The notes: a model not told the origin generated them from the letters alone. A stretch of DNA of 64,000 bases from an uncultured Planctomycetales bacterium (GCA_964489065.1 CAZAXH010000008.1:64130-128129), one strand, 5' to 3'. Shown: positions 6,366 to 52,045, numbered from the stretch's first letter. Numbers and translations: made by a program.

Positions 6366-7421
6366 ATGATAGAACATTCCAAACCGACATTGGGGCCGCG
6401 CGAGAGACAGGCGCTCCTGAAAACTCTGGCTTCCAATTATATTGCGGAAGGCCAGGAAGTGCATTGCTTTGAAAATGAGGTGGCCGCTTATATCGGTTCC
6501 CCGGGCGCTGTCGCAACGTCCACCGGAACTTTGGGGCTCCATCTCGCACTTCTTTGCCTTGATATGAAGCCAGGGGCCGAGATCATCATCCCAAGCTACA
6601 CTTGCCGCTCTGTTTTAAACGCGGTTTCCTACTGCCGGGCTAAACCGGTGGTATGTGACGTGGAGATAGAAAATTATAATTTGTCTTTTGCGGATGTAAA
6701 AAAAAAAATGACGGCTCGCACGCAAGCGATTATTGTGCCGCATATGTTCGGGTGTCCGGCGCCGATTGACCACTTTAAAACACTGGGGGTTCCTCTTATT
6801 GAAGACTGTGCGCACGCTTTGGGCACCGAATATAAAGGGCGGAAAGCGGGCTGTTGGGGCGATTTGGCCCTGCTTTCTTTTGAAGGTACAAAATATATTG
6901 TAACGGGGGAAGGGGGGATGGTCTTAGCCAACTCTGCCCGCATGCTCAAAAGGCTCCGCAAGTTGAAGGAGGGGGATTCTCCCGATCTTCCTGCGAAATA
7001 CACGTATCGTATGACGGATTTACAGGCCGCCGTGGGACGGGTTCAACTGAGCAGGCTGGAAGATTTTATTAAGAAACGCCGGAGCATCGCCCGGGTTTAT
7101 GATAAAGCCTTCGCATCTGTGACCGAAAGGCATCCGTTGGCGCACATTGACGGCCGCCATATTTACCAGCGTTACATGGTTCAGGTCCGGGGAAACATCC
7201 GTAAACTCATGGAAGATTGCCTTCGCCAGGGGATAAAAGTGAAGCAGCCGGTCAAACCTTATCCTCTGCACCGCTATCTGGGTCTTGCCGGAGGTTTATT
7301 CCCCAACACCGAGCGTATTATGCGTTCGGCGGTCTCTATCCCGATATATCCCTCGTTAACAAAAAAAGAGATTATGCATATAACACAAATACTGCCACCC
7401 TTATTCAAGCGCTATGCCTGA
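6366..7421 (+). CDS. DegT/DnrJ/EryC1/StrS family PLP-dependent aminotransferase
   Basis: N-terminal KPTLGPRE...YIAEGQEV...TGTLGLHLAL...IIPSYTC and the FEGTKYI lysine region typical of sugar aminotransferases or dehydratases. Contains an A11 homopolymer at 6698-6708. Confidence 0.8.
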   Translation: MIEHSKPTLGPRERQALLKTLASNYIAEGQEVHCFENEVAAYIGSPGAVATSTGTLGLHLALLCLDMKPGAEIIIPSYTCRSVLNAVSYCRAKPVVCDVEIENYNLSFADVKKKMTARTQAIIVPHMFGCPAPIDHFKTLGVPLIEDCAHALGTEYKGRKAGCWGDLALLSFEGTKYIVTGEGGMVLANSARMLKRLRKLKEGDSPDLPAKYTYRMTDLQAAVGRVQLSRLEDFIKKRRSIARVYDKAFASVTERHPLAHIDGRHIYQRYMVQVRGNIRKLMEDCLRQGIKVKQPVKPYPLHRYLGLAGGLFPNTERIMRSAVSIPIYPSLTKKEIMHITQILPPLFKRYA

Positions 7422-8406
7422 TACTGAAAAAACAATTATCCCGGTTCCTGATTTGTCCCATGTTGACGCCGGCCCGTTCCCGCCCATGGTGGTTGTCGAA
7501 ATCACGAATGTCTGTAATCTGCAGTGCATCCACTGTCCGTTTTGCTATATATCAAAAGAGCCCGGGTATAAACCGTGCTATATGGCCTGGCCGCTTTATA
7601 AAAAGATCGTGGATGAGGTCGCCGGCCATCCCGGAACCATTTTTCGGCTTTTATGTGACGGAGAGCCCCTCTGCCATCCTCGGTTTATCGATATGGTCCG
7701 CTATGCTAAGACGCGGGGGGTAAGCCCGGTTAATTTTATCACCAACGGGCTTTTAATGGACGGGGCCCGGGCTGCGGCGGTGCTGGAAGCCGGAGTGGAG
7801 GCGGTTGAATTCAGCCTGGATGCGCTTAATAAGAACACATACGAGCGCATCCGGAAAGGTTCGAATTATGAAACGGTCATGCATCATGTCAAAGGCTTTA
7901 TCCGGCTGCGAGACACGTTAAAGGCTCCGACAAAAATTTTTGTCAGCATTATTGACCAGCCTGAAGCCGAAGCCGAGTTGGACGCTTTTGTCGCTTACTG
8001 GACCCCCCGTGTCGACCGGGTTATTACCCGGGCCTACACGTCCATACGGGGCCTTGTTGACCCGGCCAAGATCAAGACCGACCCGCAGATTAAACGCTGG
8101 CCCTGTCCTGACCTTTGGAGGCGTTCGTTTATCAATGTCGACGGTTTTGCCGAATTCTGCGTGGAAGATTGGCACGACCAATCCGTGGTCGGGGATATTA
8201 ACAAAACGACCCTTCAGGCCGTCTGGCAGGGTCCGGATTACGAACGGCTCCGGACCCTGCACAGGCAACGGAGGTTTCAGGAAATTCCTTATTGTGCGGG
8301 CTGTCTGGATTGGCGGGCCCGGGACTGGCATTATGATTATTTTTTGGCTTTGAGAGATACGTTAGGCTCAACGGCAGCCCCAGAGCGGCGGGAGGTGCGG
8401 CCATGA
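7414..8406 (+). CDS. Radical SAM protein with C-terminal SPASM-like cysteine-rich domain
   Basis: VVEITNVCNLQCIHCPF (CX3CX2C), GEPL motif, C-terminal CPDLW...FCVEDW...YCAGCLDW cysteines. Overlaps the DegT gene by 8 nt. Confidence 0.75.
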   Translation: MPDTEKTIIPVPDLSHVDAGPFPPMVVVEITNVCNLQCIHCPFCYISKEPGYKPCYMAWPLYKKIVDEVAGHPGTIFRLLCDGEPLCHPRFIDMVRYAKTRGVSPVNFITNGLLMDGARAAAVLEAGVEAVEFSLDALNKNTYERIRKGSNYETVMHHVKGFIRLRDTLKAPTKIFVSIIDQPEAEAELDAFVAYWTPRVDRVITRAYTSIRGLVDPAKIKTDPQIKRWPCPDLWRRSFINVDGFAEFCVEDWHDQSVVGDINKTTLQAVWQGPDYERLRTLHRQRRFQEIPYCAGCLDWRARDWHYDYFLALRDTLGSTAAPERREVRP

Positions 8407-9779
8407 CTTCACGGATTCTCCGAAAAACTCAAAGTGTCTGTCCCCGGTGTCTCGAGACCCTGGACACCTTTATCGTGGAAAAGAACGCAAAAATCGTTAT
8501 GAAAAAAACCTGCCCCCGGCATGGGCTGTTTGAAATCGTATTGTCTTCGACTCCGACTTACTACGCCGAACTCGAGGAGTATTATTTTTCCCTGGCGGAC
8601 ACTCGTTATGAAGTCCCGGAATATGAATTTTGGCCAACCTACCGGTGCAACGCTGACTGCACGATCTGCTGTTTCGGGCGGCAGAATTGGGAGATGGCGG
8701 GGCAGGACGCCTCGACGGGCGAAATTGAAAAACTGGCTAAAAACAGCAAGAAGCGTTTTTTTATTATTTCCGGGGGTGACCCGACCTGCCGGGATGACCT
8801 GGGTGATATTATAAGGACTTTTCGTAAACACGGGAAAGTCGTGACGATCAATACCAACGGCTTAAAATGCGCGGATTTAAACTACCTGAAGAAGTTGAAA
8901 AAGGCGGGCCTGGATCGACTGAATTTGCAATTTGACGGGTTTGACCCCAGATATTATCTGGCTCTGCGGCGTCAGGATTACCTGGACATCAAGCTGAAAG
9001 TTCTTGAAAACCTGCAGACTTTGGGGATTCAGACGACATTCAACGCGACCATCGCCCGGAATCTTAATGAAGGAGCGATCAAGGAATTAATGGATTTCGC
9101 CTCTTCGCACCCTTTTATCAACGGCGTTAATTTCTTTTCCATCTGTTTTCTGGGAGGGGCGAGGGACTGGGAACAAAGTTCATACATCATGCCGGATGAA
9201 ATCATTGACCTGCTCATCAGCCAAATAAGACCCGTTATTTCTAAAAAGAATGTTTTTGTTTTTCAAAAACTTCATCTGGCGGTCAAGTCGTTCCTGGCTC
9301 AGAAATGGTGCTTTTATAATCAGGTCTATCTTTTTGTCCGCAGAAACGGCTCTTTCGAGCCGATTGACCGCTTTCTCAACCTCGCTAAAGCCGAACCTTG
9401 GCTGGACCGTTACAGGGACAACTTCAAGACCAAGCCCTTCTGGGCGCGCGCCTGTCTGGGGATAGCCGTGGGGTGTCTCTTCCTGAAAAAAGAGTCCGTT
9501 ATTATTTTAAAGGAGATCCTTTTGAGGAGCGTGTCCTATTTTCTGAAGACGCGCCATTATCTTCGCGGCAGCCGGTTTTTCTCCGTGAGCTTTTCAACCG
9601 GCTGTGATCCTTATAAATTTGATTTTAACATTGTGAAACATTGCCAGAATGAAATCATCGCGGCCCGGGACCAGGACGGCGTGTTGACTCACTTAGGGAG
9701 CGACGGCCTGTATTGCATGGGGCTGGAGAAACGGTATTTGAGAAATAAACTCCAGAAAGAGGGGATGAGTTCTCGTTGA
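8403..9779 (+). CDS. Zinc-ribbon (CPxC...CPxHG) N-domain fused to a radical SAM domain; uncharacterised family
   Basis: N-terminal SVCPRCLE...KTCPRHG, then WPTYRCNADCTIC (CX3CX2C with Ile instead of the usual aromatic), ISGGDPT, and C-terminal conserved FSTGCDPYKFD and HCQNEI. ATGA overlap upstream. Confidence 0.7.
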   Translation: MTSRILRKTQSVCPRCLETLDTFIVEKNAKIVMKKTCPRHGLFEIVLSSTPTYYAELEEYYFSLADTRYEVPEYEFWPTYRCNADCTICCFGRQNWEMAGQDASTGEIEKLAKNSKKRFFIISGGDPTCRDDLGDIIRTFRKHGKVVTINTNGLKCADLNYLKKLKKAGLDRLNLQFDGFDPRYYLALRRQDYLDIKLKVLENLQTLGIQTTFNATIARNLNEGAIKELMDFASSHPFINGVNFFSICFLGGARDWEQSSYIMPDEIIDLLISQIRPVISKKNVFVFQKLHLAVKSFLAQKWCFYNQVYLFVRRNGSFEPIDRFLNLAKAEPWLDRYRDNFKTKPFWARACLGIAVGCLFLKKESVIILKEILLRSVSYFLKTRHYLRGSRFFSVSFSTGCDPYKFDFNIVKHCQNEIIAARDQDGVLTHLGSDGLYCMGLEKRYLRNKLQKEGMSSR

Positions 9780-9780
9780 T

Positions 9781-11052
9781 ATGATGAAAGCCTACCCCCG
9801 ACATTCCGTTGACATTACCTGGCGCGATTACAAGCGCATGGTTTCGTTTTTCTTCACATCCCCGGCCCGGAGGAAAGAATTCCTTCCGGAATTCGAACAA
9901 CGCTTTGCGGAATATACCGGCACCCGCTTCGCCCTGTCCGTGCCGTCCGCCCGGGTGGGGCTTTATGCGATCCTGCAGTATTTTAATTTCCCTAAAGGGG
10001 CCGAAGTTATCATCACCCCGTTCACGCACCAGAGTATTTTTACGGTCCTGAAGACGTTCCGGCTTAAGCCGGTTTTCGTCGATATCGATGAAAAGACGCA
10101 CAATATCGACCCGCACCTGGTCAGGAAATCGGTTTCGGAGAAAACCCGTCTGCTGATTTTAACTCATATGTGGGGGCAGCCCTGCGACATGGCCGCGTTC
10201 ACCGCCTTGAAAAAAGAGTACGATCTGAAAATTATTGAAGATTGCGCCATGGCCGCCGGCGCGACTTACCAGGGGCGGAAAGTGGGGAGTTTCGTCGATG
10301 CCAGCATATTCAGCTTCGGGAAAGCTAAGGCCATTTGCGCTTTCGGCGGCGGGATGCTGTGCTGCCATGACGCCTCCATGAAGGATTTTATCTCCGGCCT
10401 GATCCGGGATTTTAAGCCCTCCCGGAGCCTGCCGCTGGCGGTTTCCGTCATTAATTCCGTGATCGCCAATATCCTGACCCGGCCCCGCTTTTTTTTCTTC
10501 TCCCTTTATCCGGTGATGCGGCTTTTCAACCTGCGGGATCCCTACAATCCGGTTGAACATAAAAAAGACTCCGAAGTCATCCTGGAGCAGATGCCGGAAG
10601 AATGGAAAGTCAAAATGTCGCCGTTTCAGGCCGCCCTGGGGCTGGAACAGCTCCGGAGCCTGGACGCCCGTAACCAGGCCCGGGCCCGTAACGCGCAGCT
10701 TTTGAACTTTTTGTTGGAGGGGACGCCGGGGATCAGTGTGCCCCGGCCGCAACCCGGAGGTAATCATATTTATCTTTACTACGCGGTTCATATACAGAAC
10801 GCCGCTTCTCTGGACGCCCTTAGGTTGAGCTTGCTGAAGCGTTCGGTCGACACGCAATTAAATGAGTTGACGACTCCCCGGCAGCTGCGTGTTTTCGGGG
10901 CGGACAGCCGGACGGTCCCTGTTTTTGAAACCATATCCGCGAATATCCTTGTCATCCCCAACGGGATTTATTTAAATGACCGGGATATCCGGCTTGTGGC
11001 GGAGGCGTTAAAACAGAGCCTGAGGTCCCTTCCGGGGAAGGGGGATGCATGA
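9781..11052 (+). CDS. DegT/DnrJ/EryC1-like PLP-dependent aminotransferase (divergent)
   Basis: ALSVPSARVGLYAIL, IITPFTH, ILTHMWGQPCDM, IIEDCAMA and FSFGKAKAI (lysine) arrangement typical of the family. Confidence 0.65.
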   Translation: MMKAYPRHSVDITWRDYKRMVSFFFTSPARRKEFLPEFEQRFAEYTGTRFALSVPSARVGLYAILQYFNFPKGAEVIITPFTHQSIFTVLKTFRLKPVFVDIDEKTHNIDPHLVRKSVSEKTRLLILTHMWGQPCDMAAFTALKKEYDLKIIEDCAMAAGATYQGRKVGSFVDASIFSFGKAKAICAFGGGMLCCHDASMKDFISGLIRDFKPSRSLPLAVSVINSVIANILTRPRFFFFSLYPVMRLFNLRDPYNPVEHKKDSEVILEQMPEEWKVKMSPFQAALGLEQLRSLDARNQARARNAQLLNFLLEGTPGISVPRPQPGGNHIYLYYAVHIQNAASLDALRLSLLKRSVDTQLNELTTPRQLRVFGADSRTVPVFETISANILVIPNGIYLNDRDIRLVAEALKQSLRSLPGKGDA

Positions 11053-12431
11053 AAACGGCCCGGCCATCCCGCTCGATATTACGGACAACGGAAAGCGTCT
11101 GCCCGAAATGTTCCGCGCCCCTGCCCGCCAGTATTGTCGCGGATGAAAAAGGCGTGTTTATGGAGAAACGCTGCCCGCAGCATGGAGATTTTCGCGTGCG
11201 CCTGTCCGAAACCCCGGCCTTGTACGCCGAACTGGACGGGTTTTACTGTTCCCTGATGGGGCGGGCGCAACCTTGTTTTGATTATGAAATCTGGCCCACC
11301 CTGCGGTGCAATATGAATTGCGCGATATGTTTTTTCGGCTGTCCGCGGGAATCTTCCCGGGTTTTTGAGCCGACGCTCAACGCCATCGAACAGTTCGTCA
11401 GCCGGGACCCGCACCCGTTTTACTGCCTCTCCGGAGCGGAAGCGACTGTCCGGGATGATTTGCCGGATATCATCCGTATTTTAAAAAAGCACCGGAAAGT
11501 CGTGACGTTGAACACTAACGGAATGCGTTTCGAGGATGAATCTTATCTGTTAAAACTGAAGAACGCCGGGCTGGACCGGGTTATTTTGCAATGCGATGGT
11601 TTTGATCCCCGTGTTTCCCTGAAGATGAGGGGAGAGGATGCTGTCCCCCAACGGCAGCGTGTCTTGGCCCTCTTGGAAAAGCATCATATGCCGACCGCGC
11701 TCAGTTCCACGATCGCCCGGGGCCTCAACGAACATACGGTTTCGGAATTGCTGGATTACGCGCTGGCGCATCCTTTCATCAACGGGATCGCGTTTCTGTC
11801 CATCGCCTTTGACGGCGGGGCCCGGAACTGGAGCCAGGAGCGCTACATGATGCCGGATGAAGTGATCGACGTTGTCTGCCGTGTCCCCGGCTATAACGTA
11901 AAAAAAGAAAACGTGCACAGATTTCAAAAGCTGCATTTCGCCGTCAAGGCGTTCTTGAAGCAGCGCGCGTGTTTATATAATCAGCTTTATGTCCTGGTGC
12001 GCCGGCGGGGTTCCTTTGAGCCTATTGACGCTTTCATGAATCTCGCTAAAGCCGAGCCCTGGCTGGACCGTTACCGGCACGCTTACGCGGGGAAGAAACA
12101 CGGCCTGGCCGCTCTTTATCTGGGGCTGGCTTTGCTATGCCTGTGCTGCCATCGCCGGATTTTAGTCCTGTTCCGGGACCTTCTCGGCTCGGGGGTGTCT
12201 TATTTCTTCCGGACGTCACGATATCTAAGAACAGGCCGACTGCTTGCTTTAAGTTTTACGACCAGCTGCGACCCGTATAAGCTCGACAAGACAATCCTCC
12301 AGAATTGTCAGAATGAAATTATGGCCGCGGATCAAACACCGGACTCTTTACGCCCTATCGGAAGGGAAGGCGCCTATTTCGTGAACCTGGAAAAACATTA
12401 CGCTGAATCTCAACCCCGGGGGGAACCATGA
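11049..12431 (+). CDS. Zinc-ribbon-radical SAM family protein (paralog of 8403-9779)
   Basis: SVCPKCSAPLP...KRCPQHG, WPTLRCNMNCAIC, LSGAEAT, TSCDPYKLD, NCQNEI. ATGA overlaps on both sides. Confidence 0.7.
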   Translation: MKTARPSRSILRTTESVCPKCSAPLPASIVADEKGVFMEKRCPQHGDFRVRLSETPALYAELDGFYCSLMGRAQPCFDYEIWPTLRCNMNCAICFFGCPRESSRVFEPTLNAIEQFVSRDPHPFYCLSGAEATVRDDLPDIIRILKKHRKVVTLNTNGMRFEDESYLLKLKNAGLDRVILQCDGFDPRVSLKMRGEDAVPQRQRVLALLEKHHMPTALSSTIARGLNEHTVSELLDYALAHPFINGIAFLSIAFDGGARNWSQERYMMPDEVIDVVCRVPGYNVKKENVHRFQKLHFAVKAFLKQRACLYNQLYVLVRRRGSFEPIDAFMNLAKAEPWLDRYRHAYAGKKHGLAALYLGLALLCLCCHRRILVLFRDLLGSGVSYFFRTSRYLRTGRLLALSFTTSCDPYKLDKTILQNCQNEIMAADQTPDSLRPIGREGAYFVNLEKHYAESQPRGEP

Positions 12432-15184: not shown

Positions 15185-15188
15185 AATT

Positions 15189-16751: not shown

Positions 16752-16761
16752 AACAAGATAA

Positions 16762-23980: not shown

Positions 23981-24013
23981 ACCAGGGGGATGAAGGTCGG
24001 CAAGGATAAGGTT

Positions 24014-28640: not shown

Positions 28641-28680
28641 ACTCTGTTTTGTGCCTTTGTTAAGAGAGGAAAAAGGTTTT

Positions 28681-30291: not shown

Positions 30292-30304
30292 CACAAAAAC
30301 TCAT

Positions 30305-32076: not shown

Positions 32077-32077
32077 A

Positions 32078-32773: not shown

Positions 32774-32977
32774 AAACAGAGGAGGACAAAAGGGCCGCCC
32801 CCTGGCAAAAATTATGGAGCCCCATGCCCATAGGCATGTGGCTATTAACAATTCGTTTCGCGGAATGATCTGACCACCTTAATATATGTACGGACATCCC
32901 CGAAACAGAAAACCTTGTTAGTCCTCCGGCATTCATCCACGGGCACGCCTGCGGTCTTCTGCCAGGGGGATAAAAAT

Positions 32978-37674: not shown

Positions 37675-37978
37675 TTTTGACTCAATCGTCCTTTTTAAGC
37701 CGGATGGTTCCTGGCAGACCAGCGGTGAGCATGAGCGCCCGGTGACAAGACAATGTTTATAATACTAGAAACCAGAAAGCTAAACCAGTAAAAACTTAAA
37801 ACGATTACCGGTGTTGTGCTGTCATCAAAGCCGGGAAGTTATCAGGTCGTGAATTTATAATTTTTTTCTATAAATATGATTATTAATATTCAAATAACAT
37901 TTAAAGTATCGTAAAGAATTCCTGCTATAATAAAAGGCCGTAGATAAAAATTGTTTTCAACATTTCTTTAAGCGGGCT

Positions 37979-39181: not shown

Positions 39182-39369
39182 AACCGGCGTCCATAAATTT
39201 TTTTTAAAAGACTTTGCGCTCTACGTGATACGCGCCCGCTGCCCGGGATGGAGATTTTAAGGATTCAATGGGTTTATGATACAATGAACATGGGGATGTT
39301 TAAGAATTAGACCATAAAATACTGATGTGATATGACGGGGATATCCGATAATACCAGAAAGCAGGGGGC

Positions 39370-40875: not shown

Positions 40876-40879
40876 CGAT

Positions 40880-42124: not shown

Positions 42125-42133
42125 ATTAAAAAG

Positions 42134-43612: not shown

Positions 43613-44613
43613 AAAAAAGCACCATCCTTCTTATAGTGAAAAATTTATTGCGCGCCCGGCTCTACAAAGAAAACATCCCAGTTATCGTCAGCTGGGCTAT
43701 TACCTATAAATGCAACGCGCGGTGTCAATATTGCGAAAACTGGACTTGCCCCACTGACAAGGAACTGACTAGGGAAGAAATCATGGCGGTTATTGATGAC
43801 CTGGCGGCCATGGGCACAGCGGTCATATCGTTGACGGGAGGGGAGCCTTTGTTGCGCCCGGATCTGGCGGATATCATTGATCATGCCGTGCACCGGAAAA
43901 TCTATGTGTCGGTTAATACCAATGGGATTCTCGTATCCCAACATCTTCCGGTTCTTAAAAAAGCGGACCGCGTGACGGTTAGTTTTGACGGGCCGGAAGC
44001 CGTGCATGATTCCATCCGCGGCCCCGGCACGCACGGCCTTGTCCTGAAGGCGATAGAAATTTTGGTGGAGAACGGGTGTGCGCCGGCATTAAACACCGTG
44101 TTGACAAAAATGAACGCCCCCTACGTTGACGACATCCTTAAAACCGCCGGACAATATAACGTTAAAGTATCATTTCAACCCGTTTCTCTTTGTTTACTCG
44201 AGAGTAAAAAAGAAAATCCGCTCGCGCCCGCGTCGGAAGATTATCAGGCGGCCATCAATAAGATCATAACCGCAAAAAGAAAAGGCAACCCGCATATCTT
44301 AAATTCACTGGGAGGGTTAAATCACCTTGCTCACTGGCCCTGTCCGGCCGCCATCGCGTGTTCGGCCGGGAGCGTGCATTTCCGTATCGAACCGGACGGG
44401 TTGATGACAAACTGCAGCCGGCAGTTTCTTTTAAAATCCAAGCACAGCCAAAGCGCGGATATCCGGGAAGGGGGTGTCCTCAGGGCTGTCCGTCAGTTGA
44501 AAGTCGTCCCGTGCTGTGAATGCTGGTGCGCCTCTACCGTGGAAACAAATTTAGCGACGTCTTTTAACGTTTCATGTGCTTGGAATATGCTGAAACGCGC
44601 CCGGGGGCATTAA
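43609..44613 (+). CDS. Radical SAM protein with SPASM-type C-terminal domain
   Basis: ITYKCNARCQYCENW, LTGGEPL, C-terminal CPAAIACSAG...NCSRQF...PCCECWCAS cysteine cluster. ATGA overlap. Confidence 0.7.
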   Translation: MKKSTILLIVKNLLRARLYKENIPVIVSWAITYKCNARCQYCENWTCPTDKELTREEIMAVIDDLAAMGTAVISLTGGEPLLRPDLADIIDHAVHRKIYVSVNTNGILVSQHLPVLKKADRVTVSFDGPEAVHDSIRGPGTHGLVLKAIEILVENGCAPALNTVLTKMNAPYVDDILKTAGQYNVKVSFQPVSLCLLESKKENPLAPASEDYQAAINKIITAKRKGNPHILNSLGGLNHLAHWPCPAAIACSAGSVHFRIEPDGLMTNCSRQFLLKSKHSQSADIREGGVLRAVRQLKVVPCCECWCASTVETNLATSFNVSCAWNMLKRARGH

Positions 44614-44620
44614 AAACCTT

Positions 44621-45982
44621 ATGAGTCAAATGGGATATATCGATCGTATAAAAAAAATATTATCTAGGGACAACACCCAATATACCCCGGCAGGGACGAT
44701 CCTGACCCTGTGCCTTACGGCTGGATTCTTGCTGCGGATTTATGCCGCAACAACAGTCCCCCGGGTTTTGGATGAAGAAGAAATTTTAATGCACGTGCCC
44801 GCCTTCAGCGGAATAACGTCCATAGCCGCCGGCAGTGATTGGACTCATAATCCTCCGTTAGTCCCTTATTTGCTTCAATTAAGCTTGGCGGCCGGAGGGA
44901 ACAATACCTTGGCCATGCGCTTCCCGGGGGTGTTGGCAGGGACGTTAACATTATTAATTCTGTATCTGCTCGTAAAAAAGCATGTAAACACACAAACAGC
45001 TTTATGGGCTCTTTTTTTCGCGGCCTTCAGCCAGTTTTTTATAGGATTCTCCCGCTTACTGAAACCAGACGGGATATCGTTATTTTTTATTGCCTGTGTT
45101 TTATTTCTTGCCGAGCAGGCGCATATAACGCGAAAGAAGTATTACCTTTGGGGTGCCGGGCTTTTTATGGGGTTCGGGCTTCTGGTAAAATTGAACATCA
45201 TAACCCTCTGGCCCGTCATCCTGTGTTATCTTTTTATCGGCTCTCCCGACCGCCGGGGTTTCTCGGGAAAAGATTTTATTCTTGTGCATATTCTCATGCT
45301 TCTTTGCCTTGCTCCGTATATCCTCTGGAATATCCAGAACTCCTGGGTTGACTATTCCGTCAAAACCGGCCGAACCGAGTTCCTTTCCATTAGCCTTGTG
45401 CCAACAGCTCTTTTTCTGGGGGAAATTTTTATTTCCAATATGCCTGAATTCACCAGTGAATACATATTTAAAATTTGTTCGGTGGAATATCCTTTCTTTA
45501 ACTGGATGCTGGGTCTGATCTGTATCACGGGAGCCGTATATTTTCTGTTTCGTGACACAAAGAATAGTTTTTTAACCTTATTAAAATGGGTCTTTTATTC
45601 CAATTACCTTTTTTTCTCACTCATGCGGCCCAGGACAGGGGGCGGGTATCATTTCCACCTGGATAATTTCTGGTGGGCCATTGTTCTGGTCATCCCCGGA
45701 CTTATCCTGGGATCCGCCATGATCGCTGAATTCTGGGACCGTTTCCGTTGGACCCGTTACCTTTCGCCGTTTTTGATTATCTATCTGATCCTGAACGCTT
45801 TTTCTTTCGCGTCTTTTCCCGCAAATTGCTGGGTGCCGGATGAGGGGTTAAAAGTACGGGAACTGTGCCTGACGGAAAATCACTATCGGGAAACGGGCGA
45901 TATCAGACGGGCAAAAAAAATTCGGGCTTATCTTCTCAAACATTTCCCGGAAAAAAGTCATTGCCGTTATTATAATTTTTGA
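44621..45982 (+). CDS. ArnT/PMT-like GT-C fold polyprenyl-phosphate-sugar-dependent glycosyltransferase
   Basis: RFPGVLAGTLTLLILYLLVKK and following loops resemble the ArnT/GT39/GT83 signature R.PsaL.g...v.l.y.l. About 12 TM helices. Confidence 0.55.
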   Translation: MSQMGYIDRIKKILSRDNTQYTPAGTILTLCLTAGFLLRIYAATTVPRVLDEEEILMHVPAFSGITSIAAGSDWTHNPPLVPYLLQLSLAAGGNNTLAMRFPGVLAGTLTLLILYLLVKKHVNTQTALWALFFAAFSQFFIGFSRLLKPDGISLFFIACVLFLAEQAHITRKKYYLWGAGLFMGFGLLVKLNIITLWPVILCYLFIGSPDRRGFSGKDFILVHILMLLCLAPYILWNIQNSWVDYSVKTGRTEFLSISLVPTALFLGEIFISNMPEFTSEYIFKICSVEYPFFNWMLGLICITGAVYFLFRDTKNSFLTLLKWVFYSNYLFFSLMRPRTGGGYHFHLDNFWWAIVLVIPGLILGSAMIAEFWDRFRWTRYLSPFLIIYLILNAFSFASFPANCWVPDEGLKVRELCLTENHYRETGDIRRAKKIRAYLLKHFPEKSHCRYYNF

Positions 45983-46006
45983 GAAAGACGCCCGTATTGT
46001 AACGTC

Positions 46007-47602
46007 ATGAAATTAACCATGCCCATAAAGATTCCCGAACTCCGGTTTCAACTCCAAGACATCAAATATGTCACTGGAGCGGCCGGCTGGGCCATCGGGA
46101 CCTATCTTTTCGGCTCATATCTGCTCAGCCTGCTTTATCATTGCAGCTTTCGAGAGGTCCGCATTTTCAGCCCGGACAACCTTAGTACGGCAGCGGTCCT
46201 CATGAGCTTCCTGATTTTCGGGGCCGGATTTATAATGACCTTCTTTATCCCGGGGTGGATTCTGTGCCTGCATTTCCGGCGCTTGCAAAATGATCTTCCG
46301 GGATTCCTGACAGCCGCATTTTTTTCCAGTATCGGAATTTGTATCCTGGGGAGCTCAATTTATAAAATCATGGGGGGGAGGATTTTGTGCAGGAATAATT
46401 TTCTGGGTATTATCATTTTGTTGATAATATTAGAACTCATCTCGCTATTATGGAAAAGACACCGCCGTCAAGAACAATGTCCCCCAAGAGATATTATGTT
46501 TTCACTGCCATCTCTTATGCCATATTGTGTTTTGATTCTTCTAGCCATTTTGTTCCTCCTGACTTCAGGCCGGGACCTTATTAACGGGGCTCCTGTGGCT
46601 TATCAATACGACCCCCAAACGGTTCTGGCCATTCCCCTGGGAGAGCAGTCGGATTCTCTTGAAGCTTTCGGCCTGGCGCACAGCCTCCGGACCCATCTTT
46701 TGCCGTACTGGGACCTGGAATACGCTGATAAATTCGGCTATGTTTTTACAGATACCCCGCTGTATCCTTATGTGGCTCTGTTTGCTATTTTACTTTTCGG
46801 GGAAAGCTTCGCGGCCGTATCTCTGTTGTCTGTCAGTTTTATTATTATGATATTCAGCTCTGTGCTGGCCCGGGGGTATCCGCTGCGCTCCCAGATACGC
46901 TTTGTAACCTGCGCCGGGCTCATGCTCGCCTATCTTTTTTTTCTTCTCAAAGAACCGGCTGTTTTTGTTTACATGGAACATTTTTTCCTCCTGCAGATTA
47001 TTCTGGTTTATATCTTCCTCCTTAAAAAAGACAAGGTTGTTTTTTGGCTGTTGGCCATCAGCGCGACCCTGACGAAATTTTATGGAATTTTTTTTATTCT
47101 TCTGGGGATCGGCGCTTTATTCCTGTTTTTTAAAAAAAGACAAAGGGAAGCCCGGGGCCTGCTGGCTGGATATGGACTGATCGTTGCCAGTGTGTTGGTC
47201 GGCATTCTGTTCATGGGTGTTATAACCGGGAATACCGGCACGTATATAAAATGCCTGTTCATCGAGCATCTTAACCGTCTGGATTATTTTTCCTTACTCC
47301 CCAGGATATACCCTCAGGACGTCGTGTATCGCCCGACGCCGGATTTTAACCAAAGCACCCGGTTTCTCACCTGGACGTTATTGGCGACCGCGTTCACGTT
47401 CCCGGCTTTATTTGTTTTTGGAGACGACCGGGAAGAACGGTTTTACTCGTTGATCGGTCTGATTTATTTCACCCTTGTTTTTGTCAGCACCTACAGCTTG
47501 CCCCGGTATGTGCTTCCGCTCATCCCGTTTGCGGCCATGGTCGTGAGCAGCCAGGGGGAAAGATATCTGGCCCGGAGGATAAAAAGGGAGACTTATTCAT
47601 GA
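46007..47602 (+). CDS. Polytopic membrane protein (about 14 TM), possible second GT-C-like transferase
   Basis: Hydrophobicity pattern only; no diagnostic motif recognised. Confidence 0.35.
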   Translation: MKLTMPIKIPELRFQLQDIKYVTGAAGWAIGTYLFGSYLLSLLYHCSFREVRIFSPDNLSTAAVLMSFLIFGAGFIMTFFIPGWILCLHFRRLQNDLPGFLTAAFFSSIGICILGSSIYKIMGGRILCRNNFLGIIILLIILELISLLWKRHRRQEQCPPRDIMFSLPSLMPYCVLILLAILFLLTSGRDLINGAPVAYQYDPQTVLAIPLGEQSDSLEAFGLAHSLRTHLLPYWDLEYADKFGYVFTDTPLYPYVALFAILLFGESFAAVSLLSVSFIIMIFSSVLARGYPLRSQIRFVTCAGLMLAYLFFLLKEPAVFVYMEHFFLLQIILVYIFLLKKDKVVFWLLAISATLTKFYGIFFILLGIGALFLFFKKRQREARGLLAGYGLIVASVLVGILFMGVITGNTGTYIKCLFIEHLNRLDYFSLLPRIYPQDVVYRPTPDFNQSTRFLTWTLLATAFTFPALFVFGDDREERFYSLIGLIYFTLVFVSTYSLPRYVLPLIPFAAMVVSSQGERYLARRIKRETYS

Positions 47603-49071
47603 CCCCCTGTCATAATATTTTGTTAGTGCGGGTTGGGTATGCAGAGAGGAAAAAAATCGACCATCCTCTGCATCACCCGCCGCCTTTGGCCCTGAAATAC
47701 ACCCAGGCCCTGCTGGAACAAGACAGACGTTTCAAGACCCGGATTCTGGATGGCCTGATTGAGCCTATGCCGGATCAAGTGGTCGTGGCTATGATCGGGC
47801 AATGGCCGGCACACACGCTGTGCGTTGAAATCGCCTCACCGTCCAGTGAAAAGGGGCTGGCGCTATGCAAAAGCGTCCGGGAAAAGTATCCCGCCCTTTT
47901 CATTGTCGCCGTCGGCTCTGACGTCAGCGAGCGTCATCTGTTTTATGCAAACACAAACGGCCTTTTCGATGTGATCCTGAGGGGGGAGTTTGAACTGGAA
48001 TTCAGCCGCTTGATGGCCCGTGTTCAGGACAAGGGGAAAGCCGACGTTATTCAGGCGTATGGAAGCTCCGCTTTAGATCAGGAGGTGTGCCTGGTGCCCG
48101 ACCCAGGCGCCCTGCCTATCCTGGATTGGACCAGGCGTGATCTCAAGAAATATCCTTACCGCTACCCTTTGCGGCTTCCTAAAAAAATACGGCCGGGTTA
48201 TATCGCCAGTTCGCGAGGATGCCGACATGGCTGTTCCTTTTGCTCGCCGTCTGTCAGGAAAAGTTACGGGAAGAAACTCCGGCTGCGGCCGGCCAGCCAC
48301 ATCCTTCAGGAAATTGAAAGCCTGCAAAGGTTAGGGGTCAATATCATTGCATTTGAAGATGACGATTTTACGGGAGACCCCGAACACGTGCGCTCGCTCT
48401 GCGCTGAAATACGGCGCAAAAAATTAAACATCCACTGGACCTGTCACGCCCGGATTGACGAGGTGACCCCTGAATTGTTGCGCGATATGAAACAGGCCGG
48501 ATGCGTTCTCATACTATTCGGCGTTGAATCCGGTTCCGCGAAAATTATCCGTTTGCTGCACAAAAGTTCCCGGGAGCGTGACTGGAACTCCCTGGCCAGG
48601 GAAACCTTCCGGCAGGCGAGGGCCATTGGCATCGCGACCTGCGCTTTGTTTATGGTGGGGAACCCGAAGGAAACCCGGGCGGATGTGGACGAGAGCATCA
48701 AACTTGCTTTTGAATTACAGCCGGATTTTATCAAAGTACATAACTTCACCCTTTATCCCGGGTCGCAGGATTACAAACGCTATGGCGCAACTCCTGACCT
48801 GTCTGCCGCGCCGCACCATTACCTTCGGCCCATTGTGAATGTAAGCCGGTTAACAGACCAGGAATTAAAAATCCTTCAGAAGGAATTTTACAGGAACTTT
48901 TTTTTCAGGCCAGGGTACCTCTGGCCTCATATTAAGAATTATTCTCTTTTTTATCTGTTCAACTGGACTTGGAGTTTCAGGATGATCGGTGAGCTCCTTT
49001 GTTTTTTGCTCTCCCGGGAACAGCAGGGGGCAGCCGGCGCTCCGTCAACAACACCCAGCTTGTTAAAATAA
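47599..49071 (+). CDS. B12-binding radical SAM protein (classic subfamily, paralog of 42134)
   Basis: SSRGCRHGCSFCSPS and IAFEDDDF. ATGA overlap. Confidence 0.65.
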   Translation: MTPCHNILLVRVGYAERKKIDHPLHHPPPLALKYTQALLEQDRRFKTRILDGLIEPMPDQVVVAMIGQWPAHTLCVEIASPSSEKGLALCKSVREKYPALFIVAVGSDVSERHLFYANTNGLFDVILRGEFELEFSRLMARVQDKGKADVIQAYGSSALDQEVCLVPDPGALPILDWTRRDLKKYPYRYPLRLPKKIRPGYIASSRGCRHGCSFCSPSVRKSYGKKLRLRPASHILQEIESLQRLGVNIIAFEDDDFTGDPEHVRSLCAEIRRKKLNIHWTCHARIDEVTPELLRDMKQAGCVLILFGVESGSAKIIRLLHKSSRERDWNSLARETFRQARAIGIATCALFMVGNPKETRADVDESIKLAFELQPDFIKVHNFTLYPGSQDYKRYGATPDLSAAPHHYLRPIVNVSRLTDQELKILQKEFYRNFFFRPGYLWPHIKNYSLFYLFNWTWSFRMIGELLCFLLSREQQGAAGAPSTTPSLLK

Positions 49072-49081
49072 GGATTTGAAT

Positions 49082-50962
49082 ATGCCGCCTTTTTATGGAA
49101 CCATTTCCTGGGATAAGCCGCTCACGTCAGACATCAGGCATCGCCTGAAGGCGCTCGCGCCGCACGTTCAAAATAATTCCCGGAAGGGGGCTGATGAAAA
49201 CCAGCATGTCCTGCTTGCTTCTCAAGCCCCTCACGGGGAGAGGGGGAATTACTGCGAAATTCCGGGGTGTTGTGTGCTATTTAACGGCATCCTTTATAAC
49301 GCGCAGGAACTGCTGCCGCTTTTACCGGAACACGACCGGGCTTGCGCCCAGAGATGCCAGGCCCGTTTAGTCGCCTCGCTTTTTCAAAAATTCCATCATG
49401 CCTGTTTCACCCGGTTTAATGGGGATTTTTCCCTCGCCCTTCATGACGTTTCCCAGCGAACATTTTATTTGCTCAACGGGAAACTCCAGCCCAGGAAAAT
49501 ATATTATGCCTGGCAACAGGGATATTTGTTCTTTGCCGAAAACATGGAAACCATCGTAAAGATGTCCGGCTCACTTCCGCCGTTTAACAGCCGGTTCTTG
49601 CCGAAATATTTTGCCTACGGCTTTGTCCCCAGCCCCCACACCTTGCTGGAAGGGATCCATCGCCTGCCTTCCGGGAAATTCCTGCAATTCAAACCAACCA
49701 ACCTGGCTTTAGAGACTTATTGGGACATCCAATTCAGCGAGGAGAAGATGGAGGCGGCCCCAACAGGGAAGACCAGTTATAGCCAAGAAGCCTTCCGTGT
49801 ACTGTGTGAAAGCACGCAACGACGTTTCAATGCCGGCGCCCGGATTGGCTTATTTTTAAGCGGCGGGCTTGATTCCGGTTCTTTGGCAGCCGTGCTAAAG
49901 CATATCAGCCCACAGACCCCTCTGCAGACCTTTACCGCCGTATTCAACGAACAATCCTTCAATGAAGCCTCCCGCGCCCGGACTGTCGCGTCTTTTTTTC
50001 AAACGCAGCACCATGAAATTTTGTTCACCCAGGAGAAGGCCCTGACGTTTGTGACGAACTGGATAGAACGGCTGGATGATCCGTTCTCGGATGATGACGT
50101 TATTTGCGGAGGCATCCTTTCCCCCGTGGCCGAAAAATCCGCGGAGGATATCTTTCTGGGGGACGGTCCGGACGAACTGTTCATGGGCTACCCGTCCTTC
50201 CTGGCTCATCGTATCACGGAGATCTACGAACGCGTCCCGGCCTTGGTCAGGAAATATTTTGAACGGGCCGTCAGAGTCCTGCCGGTGTCCTATCGATACT
50301 GCGCCTTTGACGCGCGGTTCAGCCAGTTTTTAAGCGGTGTCGGCTATCCTCCCGCTCTCCGTGACGCGGCCTGGTGGGGCCCGTTTCCCCCGGCTTCTCA
50401 AAAGCCGTTATACCTGGATGCGGGGTTCTCTTTGGACGCCACGGATGTTTTTCAAGACGTCTTGACCGCACAGGACCGGGCTCGGGCCCAAACATTTGTG
50501 AATCAGGTTTTAACGGCTTATATTAAAATTTTAAGTGAACGCTGGCTCATGAAACTCAACGCCGTAAGCCTTGACACGCCCCTGCGGTTTAAAATGCCGT
50601 ACCTGGACGACGACTTTATGGCCTTTGTCAACAGGATCCCCTGGCAATACAAATTAAAGCCGAAATACATTTTAAGACAAGCAATAAGCCCTTATCTTCC
50701 TCAACGTATCGTCCAGGGGACCAAACGGCCGTTCTTTGTCCCCCTGGCACTCTGGATTAAAAATGGTTTTAAAGGACTGATCAGCGGCATTTTAACCCCG
50801 GAGAACCTTCAGCAGACAGGGTTGAATCATCCTACGGTTTTAAAGATGTGTGACGAACATTTTTCCGGGCACAGGAACTACGCCAGGCAAATATGGAATA
50901 TATTTATATTGACCGCCTGGCACCGGAGGATCCGAAGGATAGGGCAGGGCTTAAATCTTTAG
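49082..50962 (+). CDS. Asparagine synthase (AsnB)-like PP-loop amidotransferase lacking the N-terminal Cys nucleophile
   Basis: LFLSGGLDSGSLAAVL (SGGxDS PP-loop) and C-terminal AsnB-like fold. The N-terminus is MPPFYG rather than MCG. RBS TAAGGAT lies 8 nt upstream of ATG 49082. Confidence 0.65.
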   Translation: MPPFYGTISWDKPLTSDIRHRLKALAPHVQNNSRKGADENQHVLLASQAPHGERGNYCEIPGCCVLFNGILYNAQELLPLLPEHDRACAQRCQARLVASLFQKFHHACFTRFNGDFSLALHDVSQRTFYLLNGKLQPRKIYYAWQQGYLFFAENMETIVKMSGSLPPFNSRFLPKYFAYGFVPSPHTLLEGIHRLPSGKFLQFKPTNLALETYWDIQFSEEKMEAAPTGKTSYSQEAFRVLCESTQRRFNAGARIGLFLSGGLDSGSLAAVLKHISPQTPLQTFTAVFNEQSFNEASRARTVASFFQTQHHEILFTQEKALTFVTNWIERLDDPFSDDDVICGGILSPVAEKSAEDIFLGDGPDELFMGYPSFLAHRITEIYERVPALVRKYFERAVRVLPVSYRYCAFDARFSQFLSGVGYPPALRDAAWWGPFPPASQKPLYLDAGFSLDATDVFQDVLTAQDRARAQTFVNQVLTAYIKILSERWLMKLNAVSLDTPLRFKMPYLDDDFMAFVNRIPWQYKLKPKYILRQAISPYLPQRIVQGTKRPFFVPLALWIKNGFKGLISGILTPENLQQTGLNHPTVLKMCDEHFSGHRNYARQIWNIFILTAWHRRIRRIGQGLNL

Positions 50963-51804
50963 TCGTATTGATAAATAATCTGCATTAAATCATACAAATT
51001 AAGCGCGATGCCTTTCTGATACCACGAGTCGGGGATATGTAATGCACTTCCTTTGGCCACAAAATCAATAAAATACTGGCCAATATAACCGATAGACCTA
51101 AAACGCGTGAAATGTGCGAAGCCCAGTTCCTTTAATCCATGCTCCCCCGCAACCTTCCTGAGCGTGCCGCGGGAAAAAAATGAAAAATGATATTTGTTAA
51201 TGTAATGCCAATTTCCCCCGCACAGACGCGCGAAGAAACTGTCCGCATTAGGCGTGCAGACATAGACCACAGCCCCTCGATCCAGCACCAAGCCGAGATC
51301 GTGGAAGAAAATCCGGGGGGCCCTGACATGTTCCAGCACGTCCGAAATAATGACCGCGTCATATCTGGCCTGCGGAGCGGAAGCCCCGGGCAACCCTTTA
51401 ATGTCTGTTAAGAAGAAAAATGGCTCCCGGGAAAGATACCGGTTATATAAAGCCGCGGAAGGTTCAATCCCGTAAGCGTCAACCGAGTTCCGGCGAAGAT
51501 AGCGCACGAGTTTCCCCGTGCCCGTGCCGATATCCAAGACGCGCAATCCCTTTAAAGGTTTAAACCGTTCGATCCATGCCAGCATCCTTGCGAAATTCAC
51601 TGCGTCTTCAGGGGAATCTTCTAAATAATGGATATACGCAGGCTCATATTCTTCCAGGGTATTATGATCCAGATTAGGGTTCTGCGTCTGCCCGGAAAAC
51701 AGGAAACCGCACGACAGACAGCGGAAATAGGGGACGGCATTTTTCTTAAAAACTTCTTTTATATGTTCTGTGGAGCATAAGGGACATTGGCTTATCATAT
51801 CCAT
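50959..51804 (-). CDS. Class I SAM-dependent methyltransferase with N-terminal Cys4 zinc-ribbon
   Basis: CPLCSTEH...YFRCLSCGF, then LDIGTGTGKLVRYL (motif I) and VIISDVLEHV. GAGAGG upstream. The ORF extends to 51837, but there the start would be TTG. Confidence 0.65.
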   Translation of the reverse strand: MDMISQCPLCSTEHIKEVFKKNAVPYFRCLSCGFLFSGQTQNPNLDHNTLEEYEPAYIHYLEDSPEDAVNFARMLAWIERFKPLKGLRVLDIGTGTGKLVRYLRRNSVDAYGIEPSAALYNRYLSREPFFFLTDIKGLPGASAPQARYDAVIISDVLEHVRAPRIFFHDLGLVLDRGAVVYVCTPNADSFFARLCGGNWHYINKYHFSFFSRGTLRKVAGEHGLKELGFAHFTRFRSIGYIGQYFIDFVAKGSALHIPDSWYQKGIALNLYDLMQIIYQYD

Positions 51805-52045
51805 CCGCCTCTCGAGAATAATGGTCTTGCGTATCAAGTATACTATACAATAATTAAGTTTAAATGAAAGGAGAATAATCCTTATCTCCTTTTTCAGAAA
51901 CCGGCAAGAAATTCAAGGAATCAAAGTCATAAACCCCAGAGCAAGCTCTGGACTCAATTAACCGCAGCAAGCTGCGGGGTATGAAACCAAGATCTTTCGA
52001 CTCCTTCGCTCTAGCTCACTCGCCTCAAGGATCAATTCGTATTTC

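Follow-up and report, generated by a model that had tools for sequence, protein, structure and literature searches.

A phylum-restricted cluster of 18 radical SAM genes in Omnitrophota with a predicted role in lipid-linked glycan modification

The Arn (ArnB/C/E-F/T), Gtr (GtrA/B/type-specific GT-C), CsbB-GtcA-YfhO and PpgS/Rv3779 systems share a load-flip-transfer logic that is carried out by a family 2 glycosyltransferase (GT2), a flippase-like protein and a GT-C-type glycosyltransferase. The nearest precedent for a locus dense in radical S-adenosylmethionine (SAM) genes is found in groundwater Elusimicrobia, where nitrogenase-paralogue loci contain up to 13 such genes and are proposed to act on a tetrapyrrole (10.1101/765248). 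Among individual radical SAM enzymes, Tes has four metal sites, namely a 3Cys+His ribbon, an N-terminal [4Fe-4S] cluster, the radical SAM (RS) cluster and a C-terminal [4Fe-4S] cluster (PMC13459092). The DNA examined here is a stretch of 64,000 nucleotides (nt) deposited under the name of an uncultured Planctomycetales bacterium (GCA_964489065.1, CAZAXH010000008.1:64130-128129), and this whole stretch is referred to as the window. Positions 6366-51837 of the window hold a block of approximately 45 kb with 31-32 genes, in which 18 radical SAM genes lie among lipid-carrier amino-sugar machinery. This cluster is best read as making a radical-tailored amino sugar or short glycan on polyprenyl phosphate, which would be flipped and transferred to an envelope acceptor, and a probability of about 0.55 is assigned to that reading.

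A direct motif count identified CX3CX2C in 18 open reading frames (ORFs) spanning 7414-49071, with 19 motifs in total, two of which lie in the 918-amino acid (aa) ORF at 12428-15184. The radical SAM domain PF04055 scored above the Pfam gathering score in all 18, which agrees with the 18 ORFs and 19 domains reported by an earlier note made from the sequence alone. Pfam, NCBIfam and PDB matches were collected for all 32 ORFs, with Pfam gathering scores used for domain calls and NCBIfam equivalog cut-offs for family membership. The profile hidden Markov model (HMM) searches that the earlier note had called for upheld its radical SAM assignments along with those of three DegT-type aminotransferases, a GT2, a PF03706 flippase-like protein, WbqC, PMT_2, a PaaK/CapK-like ligase, AsnB and a HEAT-repeat protein. 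The genes are all intact, and the paralogues are not the decayed pseudogenes that would have spoken against a functional locus; orthologues are 61-85% identical versus 39-50% for paralogues. As the orthologues are closer than the paralogues, each paralogue is kept for a role of its own. The occurrence of 18 radical SAM genes in 45 kb with cross-genome synteny is far beyond chance. Most junctions measure -4 to +10 nt and the genes fall into three transcription blocks, and the tight spacing indicates operons. Four listed starts (28609, 30194, 31303 and 40739) overlap the upstream gene by 64-137 nt, and both the orthologue lengths and the points at which the Pfam matches begin suggest true starts farther downstream. 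For DegT-c, with an orthologue length of 425 aa, the true start is probably about 36 codons downstream of 40739.

The three components of a polyprenyl-phosphate system are present in this one locus as the GT2, the PF03706 protein and GT-C-type proteins (YfhO-like, PMT_2 and ArnT-fold), and an ArnT-type transferase is thus among them. All five genes are retained in the related loci L086, L087 and L088, and the PF03706 gene is collinear in L086 and L087. In NCBIfam the GT2 comes closest to ArnC, with 63 bits for a cut-off of 529, and to PpgS, with 47 bits for a cut-off of 370, and the ArnB model scores 178, 123 and 123 bits on the DegT proteins against a cut-off of 631. None of the 32 ORFs has a domain of the epimerase/dehydratase, formyltransferase or polysaccharide-deacetylase kind, as would mark ArnA or ArnD. 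The description of this locus as Arn-like therefore holds for its logic; it does not hold for a strict Arn pathway, as ArnA and ArnD are absent and the Arn equivalog scores are far below cut-off. The ORFs at 32915-34765 and 46007-47602 are additional GT-C-type proteins, and that at 28609-30291 is a beta-propeller protein anchored by transmembrane (TM) segments. The YfhO-like protein exhibits weak matches to the AftD GT-C and to PgfM2, and its gene stands beside WbqC in divergent loci. For WbqC itself no solved relative, NCBIfam match or informative literature was found, so that context is the only usable evidence. The PaaK/CapK-like ligase has DVU_1553, PaaK and FlxY as its best NCBIfam matches, all below cut-off, and its orthologues contain a CapK_C domain. 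AsnB scores 237 bits with the XrtA/PEP-CTERM amidotransferase model (cut-off 817). The HEAT-repeat gene is retained in L086 and L087, and among 5.8 billion protein clusters no more than 6 and 14 homologues were found for two proteins specific to the cluster. Of the two methyltransferases that had been counted in the block, one (50959-51837) lies inside it, though not at the same position in OY759724, and the second (342-944) lies outside.

Table 1. Predicted genes of the cluster. Positions are counted from the first nucleotide of the window.
Gene or product	Position	Strand	Matches and remarks
DegT-a, pyridoxal phosphate sugar/cyclitol aminotransferase	6366..7421	+	PF01041 270 bits; catalytic Lys in SFEGTK
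g8, twitch/SPASM-type radical SAM, candidate radical dehydrogenase partner of DegT	7414..8406	+	PF04055 + PF13186 (42.6 bits)
Zinc-ribbon radical SAM 1 (Tes/HMPTM/TrsS family, short form)	8403..9779	+	PF23545 + PF04055
DegT-b, hydrophobic insertion after catalytic Lys	9781..11052	+	PF01041 in two stretches; Lys motif SFGKAK
Zinc-ribbon radical SAM 2	11049..12431	+	PF23545 + PF04055; 46% identical to module 1
Zinc-ribbon radical SAM 3 + 4, single 918-aa ORF in the window	12428..15184	+	Two PF23545 + two PF04055
B12 radical SAM paralogue 1	15144..16751	+	PF02310 + PF04055; start probably 15189
MiaB/RimO-like methylthiotransferase homologue	16762..18114	+	UPF0004 + radical SAM
B12 radical SAM paralogue 2	18111..19625	+	PF02310 + PF04055; orthologues 74-84% identical
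B12 radical SAM paralogue 3	19622..21136	+	PF02310 + PF04055; orthologues 81-84% identical
B12 radical SAM paralogue 4	21115..22653	+	PF02310 + PF04055; orthologues 61-67% identical
Zinc-ribbon radical SAM 5	22637..23980	+	PF23545 + PF04055; orthologues 69-73% identical
B12 radical SAM paralogue 5	23990..25540	+	PF02310 + PF04055; without orthologue in L086 and L087
B12 radical SAM paralogue 6	25537..27012	+	PF02310 + PF04055; orthologues 74-79% identical
B12 radical SAM paralogue 7	27030..28640	+	PF02310 + PF04055; in L087, absent from OY759724
Multi-TM protein with C-terminal periplasmic 7-bladed beta-propeller, cluster-specific	28609..30291	+	
PF03706 (MprF flippase-domain family) membrane protein, candidate lipid-linked-sugar flippase	30194..31366	+	78 bits
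Short GT2, candidate polyprenyl-phosphate sugar synthase	31303..32076	+	PF00535
WbqC-family protein, marker of amino-sugar/glycan loci	32078..32773	+	PF08889 248 bits
YfhO-like polytopic protein, GT-C type	32915..34765	+	PF09586 C-terminal match 32.7 bits
PaaK/CapK-like adenylate-forming ligase	34766..36262	-	PDB PaaK 4e-27
Divergent B12-type radical SAM, hydrophobic C-terminal helix	36259..37674	-	PF04055 36 bits; paired with PaaK/CapK-like ligase
HEAT-repeat protein, N-terminal TM helix	37979..39181	+	HEAT_2 135 bits; TM segment 13-31
HpnJ-like B12 radical SAM	39370..40875	+	PF02310 + PF04055
DegT-c	40739..42124	+	PF01041 249 bits from residue 71; Lys motif SLGATK
BchE/HpnJ-like radical SAM, probable B12 type	42134..43612	+	PF04055; BchE 134 bits over 33-459
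SPASM-like radical SAM (SPASM-b), Cys-rich C-terminus	43609..44613	+	PF04055 + Fer4_12; eight C-terminal Cys
PMT_2 GT-C glycosyltransferase (ArnT/PMT type)	44621..45982	+	PF13231 88 bits; weak Agl23-like match
GT-C-fold (ArnT-fold) membrane protein	46007..47602	+	No Pfam match
HpnJ/PhpK/BchE-like radical SAM, probable B12 type	47599..49071	+	PF04055; HpnJ 132 bits
AsnB-type glutamine amidotransferase	49076..50962	+	PF00733 + GATase_7
Class I SAM methyltransferase, membership uncertain	50959..51837	-	Methyltransf_23

Homologues of the first zinc-ribbon protein are named only from metagenome-assembled genomes of Candidatus Omnitrophota/Omnitrophica. When 185,579 species genomes were scanned, full-length relatives (at least 33% identity) occurred only in about 20 Omnitrophota loci, and distant relatives (26-31%) were found in Eggerthellaceae and one Altiarchaeales genome. 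Two of these approximately 20 loci carry a Planctomycetes label, which comes from an automated binning project. The whole cluster from the first DegT gene to AsnB is collinear in the 3.36-Mb Omnitrophota chromosome OY759724, with few genes added or lost and with orthologues 46-85% identical, SPASM-b and PMT_2 being lower at 35-39%; the middle section is also present on a 229-kb contig. Approximately 15 further Omnitrophota loci contain the same families in other orders and with variable copy number, the counts at these distant loci (2-6 zinc-ribbon and several B12 genes) being incomplete where a locus exceeds the stored stretch. Wherever the block occurs in rearranged form, in about 15 genomes, it is accompanied by genes for polyprenyl-phosphate glycans.

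In every related locus the radical SAM/DegT block is embedded among GT2, PMT_2, YfhO-like or Bac_transf genes, and the unassigned neighbours in divergent Omnitrophota loci proved to be PMT_2, GT2 and a GT2-Bac_transf fusion. Similar surroundings are seen on plasmids. WbqC stands beside a GT2 and an EamA or GtrA small flippase, with dTDP-sugar or DegT genes near, on Azospirillum and Rhizobium plasmids, and it lies inside an amino-sugar operon on a Bacillus plasmid. On pDCAR1 of Solidesulfovibrio carbinolicus, a homologue of g8 (35% identity, E 1e-57, same four Cys residues) is found between DegT and WbqC, and this module adjoins a glycosyltransferase and an ABC transporter. The g8-type radical SAM gene also occurs with DegT, AsnB and class I methyltransferases on the Deltaproteobacterium Smac51 plasmid and Lawsonia plasmid 2, and class I methyltransferases accompany the radical SAM/DegT/AsnB/WbqC module in the Desulfovibrionales loci. 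The nearest plasmid homologue of the B12 paralogues belongs to a nonulosonic-acid locus with three more radical SAM genes. A region of pDCAR1 (68714-89940) encodes pseF, a NeuA-like protein, a NeuB-family synthase and a sialate O-acetylesterase with three consecutive radical SAM genes and a fourth near, and is an uncharacterised radical sugar-tailoring locus in a cultured organism. In the Altiarchaeales contig WJMO01000006.1 (2702-15331), four tandem short zinc-ribbon radical SAM genes and a B12-type gene have on their flanks genes for a PMT-type GT-C, a methyltransferase, a UbiA prenyltransferase and a PfkB (sugar) kinase, and from this locus the association of radical SAM and GT-C genes occurs across domains. 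In all cases examined the surrounding genes are those of lipid-linked glycan or amino-sugar synthesis; fatty-acid, ether-lipid and peptide genes surround the block in none.

Four genes with five zinc-ribbon modules had been recognised in the earlier note, and all were recovered with PF23545 and PF04055. The PF23545 family also includes the pterin C-methylase HMPTM, and one homologue carries HMPTM as its label from the Joint Genome Institute (JGI). Zinc-ribbon radical SAM 1 matches the Tes structure 7TOL at E 3e-39, with scores of 153 bits for TrsS (cut-off 490) and 144 bits for Tes (cut-off 450), and the fifth module scores 182 and 153 bits for the same families, again below cut-off. The Tes equivalog NF045702 (at least 450 bits) is thus not reached by any module, at 144-153 bits each. 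The modules are mutually 32-47% identical and each has a hydrophobic stretch near residue 350. Across 36 homologues, C13, C16, C37 and H40 of the ribbon, C82, C86 and C89 of the radical SAM motif, and C303, C401 and C414 are invariant, the last three being candidate ligands of a C-terminal auxiliary cluster. There is no Cys motif between the ribbon and the RS motif in these modules, and a Tes-type N-terminal cluster is therefore absent. In the closest relatives, L009 (approximately 90% aa identity) and L010 (approximately 80-87%), modules 3 and 4 are two overlapping genes in different frames. Near 13805 the window reads AAAA where these relatives read AAAAA just before their stop, and this 1-nt difference merges the frames. 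The 918-aa ORF reflects a gene fusion particular to this strain or else an error of assembly, and the two modules are intact in either case.

The earlier note counted 11 radical SAM proteins as B12-binding. Eight of these, paralogues 1-7 and the HpnJ-like protein at 39370-40875, have PF02310 above cut-off. The remaining three (36259-37674, 42134-43612 and 47599-49071) show no PF02310 match in the window and are assigned on the weaker evidence of an N-terminal domain of about 200 aa before the cluster motif, the same architecture as in the B12 ORFs, which gives a count of eight firm and three probable B12-type proteins. The N-domain of 36259-37674 matches an HMM built from the paralogue N-domains at E 1e-10, and its hydrophobic helix lies at 428-446. 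The proteins of 42134-43612 and 47599-49071 are 37% identical to each other, both have full-length NCBIfam alignments to BchE/HpnJ, and their orthologues exhibit weak PF02310 matches. The seven paralogues are mutually 39-50% identical and form a private subfamily of old duplicates, of which 5 and 7 are lineage-specific. Paralogue 1 has orthologues that are 80-84% identical, and its L001 gene call is 520 aa long. The nearest PDB entry to paralogue 3 is AprD4 at 4e-13, followed by CysS and TokK. Weak NCBIfam matches of the group are to HpnJ, BchE, ApyD and a "lipid biosynthesis" B12 family, and several members have hydrophobic stretches near the C-terminus. The HpnJ-like gene is the best-conserved gene of the cluster (orthologues 82-85% identical), and its product aligns at full length with its best family match, the HpnJ model, at 160 bits (cut-off 578).

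These relatives raise the question of whether the substrate is a membrane lipid. In that case the zinc-ribbon enzymes would couple or methylate lipid tails, the B12-type enzymes would methylate or cyclise them and the GT2, GT-C and DegT proteins would build the head group, as modelled on Grs, Gmm, HpnP/R and ladderane candidates, and the outcome would be a lipid of an unusual kind, branched or spanning the membrane. Among solved structures, Tes 7TOL is by far the closest to the zinc-ribbon proteins and has the same 3Cys+His ribbon (PMC13459092), the best B12 NCBIfam matches include HpnJ and "lipid biosynthesis B12-binding/radical SAM protein", and surveys have reported Mss and Gms homologues in Omnitrophota (10.1101/2023.10.20.563219, PMC11868695). 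The scores, however, fall far short of the cut-offs for Tes and HpnJ, and the zinc-ribbon proteins have no counterpart of the N-terminal cluster motif of Tes. Fatty-acid, ether-lipid, glycerol-phosphate and isoprenoid genes are absent from the cluster and from about 15 related loci, whereas the three DegT proteins, AsnB, WbqC and the PaaK-like ligase are hallmarks of glycan loci. The hydrophobic stretches of the zinc-ribbon modules and of several B12 paralogues, which could be taken for lipid contacts, are equally compatible with a polyprenyl-linked substrate. Remodelling of a lipid core is accordingly considered unlikely. The lipid-linked glycoconjugate that the earlier note proposed agrees with the GT2, flippase-like, GT-C and DegT logic and with radical tailoring outside a peptide context; what speaks for its second option, a modified lipid, is the homology to Tes and nothing else.

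The amino-sugar part of the lipid-linked glycan reading is represented by the DegT proteins and the small radical SAM proteins. The catalytic Lys is retained in all three DegT proteins and a hydrophobic insertion is present in two. DegT-a has PseC, LegC and ArnB as its best NCBIfam matches, all below cut-off, and its first PDB match is 7b0d (4e-49), followed by perosamine synthetase and ArnB, while DegT-b matches 7b0d at 3e-38 and BtrR (2c7t) at 7e-30. The adjacent g8 protein has only four C-terminal Cys residues (C231, C249, C294 and C297) and is twitch-like. These four align, in a weak alignment, with the C-terminal Cys residues of BtrN, which we take to be the ligands of its auxiliary cluster. 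DegT-a and the twitch radical SAM gene are adjacent in about 12 of 15 related loci. Two SPASM proteins had been predicted for the block: g8 carries PF13186 with four Cys residues, and SPASM-b has a Cys-rich tail without a match to PF13186, its best NCBIfam matches being MftC and other SPASM maturases below cut-off.

The same genes could be read as a pathway to a diffusible aminocyclitol or aminoglycoside-like metabolite, with BtrN-like oxidation, DegT amination, AprD4/GenK-like tailoring, glycosylation and DrrAB-type export. The top PDB match of two DegT proteins was deposited as a glutamine--scyllo-inositol transaminase, BtrR is in the top ten of DegT-b, BtrN is one of a small number of g8 relatives with a structure, AprD4 is the solved structure closest to the B12 paralogues and a DrrA/DrrB-like pair is located at 52085-53716. 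That pair does not adjoin the cluster in OY759724, though, and neither an inosose/cyclitol synthase nor a GT1 or GT4 nucleotide-sugar transferase was found. The conserved transferases are instead three membrane GT-C proteins that use lipid-linked donors outside the cytoplasm, and long-range synteny with orthologues 46-85% identical suits an envelope trait better than a variable antibiotic. A diffusible product is thus judged improbable, a little more so than a remodelled lipid.

The MiaB-like gene, kept in most related loci, encodes UPF0004 and radical SAM parts and retains the auxiliary-cluster residues C14, C50 and C82. No TRAM domain was matched in this protein, the alignments end before the TRAM region and TIGR00089 reaches 212 bits against a cut-off of 251. 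The MiaB, RimO and MtaB methylthiotransferases consist of UPF0004 (auxiliary cluster), a domain of the radical SAM type and, at the C-terminus, a TRAM domain, and their known substrates are tRNA and ribosomal protein S12 only (PMC10702137). A TRAM-less homologue in a glycan cluster is unusual for this reason.

With B12-type radical SAM proteins and SPASM proteins together, maturation of a protein or of a peptide that is made on the ribosome and modified after translation (RiPP) has to be considered, in the form of a proteusin-like RiPP or a radical-modified surface protein with its precursor encoded elsewhere. B12 radical SAM C-methyltransferases and SPASM proteins typically act as RiPP maturases, the weak NCBIfam matches include models of ApyD and of RiPP C-methyltransferases, and AsnB homologues form lactams in lasso peptides. 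Yet AsnB of the cluster scores 237 bits against the exopolysaccharide (EPS)-type amidotransferase versus 93 bits against lasso cyclases, no leader peptidase or other peptidase domain and no C39-type ABC exporter were found, and the context is a glycan one at every related locus. The radical SAM motif is at residue 34-35 in both SPASM-type proteins, leaving no room for a RiPP recognition element (RRE) domain. When ORFs of at least 20-25 aa were listed in the sole intergenic gaps, none was precursor-like in any gap. A RiPP cluster was rejected on these two last grounds, and peptide or protein maturation in the wider sense is very improbable. The absence of polyketide synthase (PKS) and nonribosomal peptide synthetase (NRPS) domains from the cluster and of a credible small ORF from its gaps agrees with what had been noted from the sequence.

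The earlier note spoke of an island and raised horizontal acquisition. Scans found no tRNA or tmRNA genes, Rfam families (cobalamin riboswitches included), flanking repeats, or integrase and mobility genes, and the only repeats at the cluster are the paralogous genes themselves. The GC content is 0.504 in the cluster versus 0.475, and the right flank resembles the cluster. A mobile or horizontally acquired island was rejected given this modest excess, the lack of tRNA, integrase and repeats, and synteny within one phylum; the block is a phylum-restricted, syntenic chromosomal cluster. Promoter and terminator scans returned counts at shuffle expectation.

The left flanks vary between genomes, and the cluster always starts with a DegT gene. 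In L009, which is 91-97% identical, a DsbD/CcdA-like gene lies about 650 nt upstream of the first DegT gene with no ORF of at least 90 aa between them (L009 5643-9019). The window has four genes at this site (2864-6024), encoding an Mrp/NUBPL-type ATPase, an ARMT1-like phosphatase, a 183-aa AAA_21 fragment and a 281-aa protein, and this difference identifies the left border as a site of recent gene gain or loss. The fragment (4606-5157) matches only the Walker-A end of AAA_21/ABC/SMC ATPases and looks like a truncated ATPase gene. The ORF at 1173-2843 was considered as an extra GT-C and rejected, as it has a thioredoxin-like CxxC and a CcdA/DsbD-type TM motif and no Pfam match. On the right, an AcrB-type resistance-nodulation-division (RND) pump gene and an outer-membrane factor gene occur together (53963-58551); the 246-nt gap upstream of the pump gene holds no ORF of at least 150 aa, and the periplasmic adaptor gene appears to be missing there. 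In OY759724.1 the cluster is followed by a second GT2 gene and a GT9 (heptosyltransferase family) gene (L088 18844-20070), and the GT9 is a weak hint that lipopolysaccharide (LPS) is the acceptor, with a possible link to its core. Immediately upstream of the YfhO-like gene, six divergent Omnitrophota loci share a conserved ORF of approximately 280 aa (L007 3396-4259, L019 2237-3115, L023 278-1147, L024 3341-4177, L025 5902-6729 and L028 2643-3539), which is absent from the window. It directly follows WbqC in L007, L024 and L028, where WbqC is within the stored stretch, and the two copies scanned, those of L007 and L028, gave no significant Pfam match.

From the families, folds, co-localization and orthologue/paralogue structure described above, we infer the chemical steps of a lipid-linked pathway, their order, the carrier and the acceptor. 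Going by its ArnC/PpgS-type similarity, the short GT2 would act at the cytoplasmic face, where it would take the sugar of a nucleotide sugar and load it onto polyprenyl phosphate. The twitch/SPASM proteins may then oxidise secondary alcohols to ketones that the three DegT proteins would transaminate; the pairing of the genes is observed, and the chemistry is suggested by analogy with BtrN/BtrR (BtrS) in 2-deoxystreptamine synthesis. The 11 B12-type proteins and five zinc-ribbon modules would each install one site-specific methylation or C-C bond at unactivated carbons, and the MiaB-like enzyme may add a methylthio or sulfur group. AsnB could amidate a carboxylate and the PaaK/CapK-like ligase could attach an acid. 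The PF03706 protein is the putative flippase of the lipid-linked product, which the three GT-C proteins (YfhO-like, PMT_2 and ArnT-fold) would transfer in the periplasm to LPS, protein or another polymer, with the TM-anchored beta-propeller and HEAT proteins as possible accessory factors.

Several points count against such a pathway. The host is uncultured. Nucleotidyltransferase, 4,6-dehydratase and epimerase genes for nucleotide sugars were not found in the cluster, and g8 resembles BtrN only weakly at its C-terminus (domain i-Evalue 0.45). The equivalog scores for ArnB, ArnC, PseC, Tes, HpnJ and MiaB are all far below cut-off, so no step can be assigned by orthology. The nearest characterised kin of the zinc-ribbon proteins have substrates other than sugars, namely lipid tails (Tes) or a pterin (HMPTM), and we know of no described sugar that needs approximately 16 radical steps.

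It is conceivable, though doubtful, that about 16 different radical SAM enzymes act in sequence on one lipid-linked sugar or aminopolyol. This would involve Tes-type C(sp3)-C(sp3) coupling with a carbohydrate as substrate, several B12-dependent steps of C-methylation or ring formation and, for the first time, a methylthiotransferase for a substrate other than RNA or a ribosomal protein, and would define a new class of Omnitrophota envelope glycoconjugate. Such a molecule may be linked to the ultra-small, host-associated lifestyle of these bacteria. The Omnitrophota are abundant but uncultured, and the biology of their cell surface is believed to be the basis of a predatory or parasitic way of life; the cluster points to a chemically extreme surface molecule in this phylum. 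If the lipid-linked glycan reading is right, this is the densest known set of radical SAM genes devoted to one non-peptide product. It would also bring new enzymology, with a short tandem Tes/HMPTM-type subfamily, a private seven-member B12 subfamily and a TRAM-less methylthiotransferase, and the conserved radical SAM-DegT pair may be the anaerobic route by which a sugar alcohol becomes a sugar amine. That this chemistry is of a categorically new kind is a real possibility. The plasmid modules of Desulfovibrionales (S. carbinolicus pDCAR1 and Lawsonia plasmid 2) are smaller, in cultured hosts and experimentally tractable.

The view that the block fits no described pathway is borne out by the literature, in which no description of this cluster was found in open-access full text. 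Compared with the three-component glycan systems, the cluster has the same load-flip-transfer set, with three GT-C proteins rather than one and with 18 radical SAM genes in the same operons. With these systems it shares a DegT aminotransferase and a short GT2 that is most similar to ArnC and mycobacterial PpgS, but it is without ArnA, ArnD, ArnE/F and GtrA, and its flippase candidate comes from another family, PF03706. Like the Elusimicrobia loci, it belongs to an uncultured phylum related to the Planctomycetes-Verrucomicrobia-Chlamydiae group and is dense in radical SAM genes, some of them B12-fused and variable in copy number; those loci are centred on NifH/D/K paralogues, whereas the cluster has no nif-like genes and a glycan context (10.1101/765248). 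The zinc-ribbon proteins have the N-terminal 3Cys+His ribbon and following radical SAM core of Tes (the glycerol dialkyl glycerol tetraether (GDGT)/macrocyclic archaeol synthase, 7TOL), HMPTM (MJ0619) and TrsS. They are about 450 aa long, are without the N-terminal [4Fe-4S] motif of Tes and reach about one third of the cut-offs for Tes and TrsS, and their genes form tandem sets of 2-6 paralogues that adjoin GT-C and DegT genes rather than lipid genes. The B12-type proteins have the N-terminal B12-type Rossmann domain and radical SAM core of the class B cobalamin enzymes (HpnJ, BchE, GenK, Fom3, CysS, TokK, GrsA/B and the B12-fold AprD4), but they reach no family cut-off, and their cobalamin use and reaction type are predictions. 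As in BtrN/BtrR (BtrS) of butirosin/2-deoxystreptamine and in DesII, a DegT-family aminotransferase has as its partner a small radical SAM protein that carries one auxiliary-cluster motif at the C-terminus, although the similarity to BtrN is weak and aminocyclitol genes are absent. The cluster is accordingly best described as a predicted system of lipid-linked glycan modification whose radical-tailoring block is unprecedented; it has relatives in Tes, HpnJ, BtrN and MiaB without belonging to any of these families.

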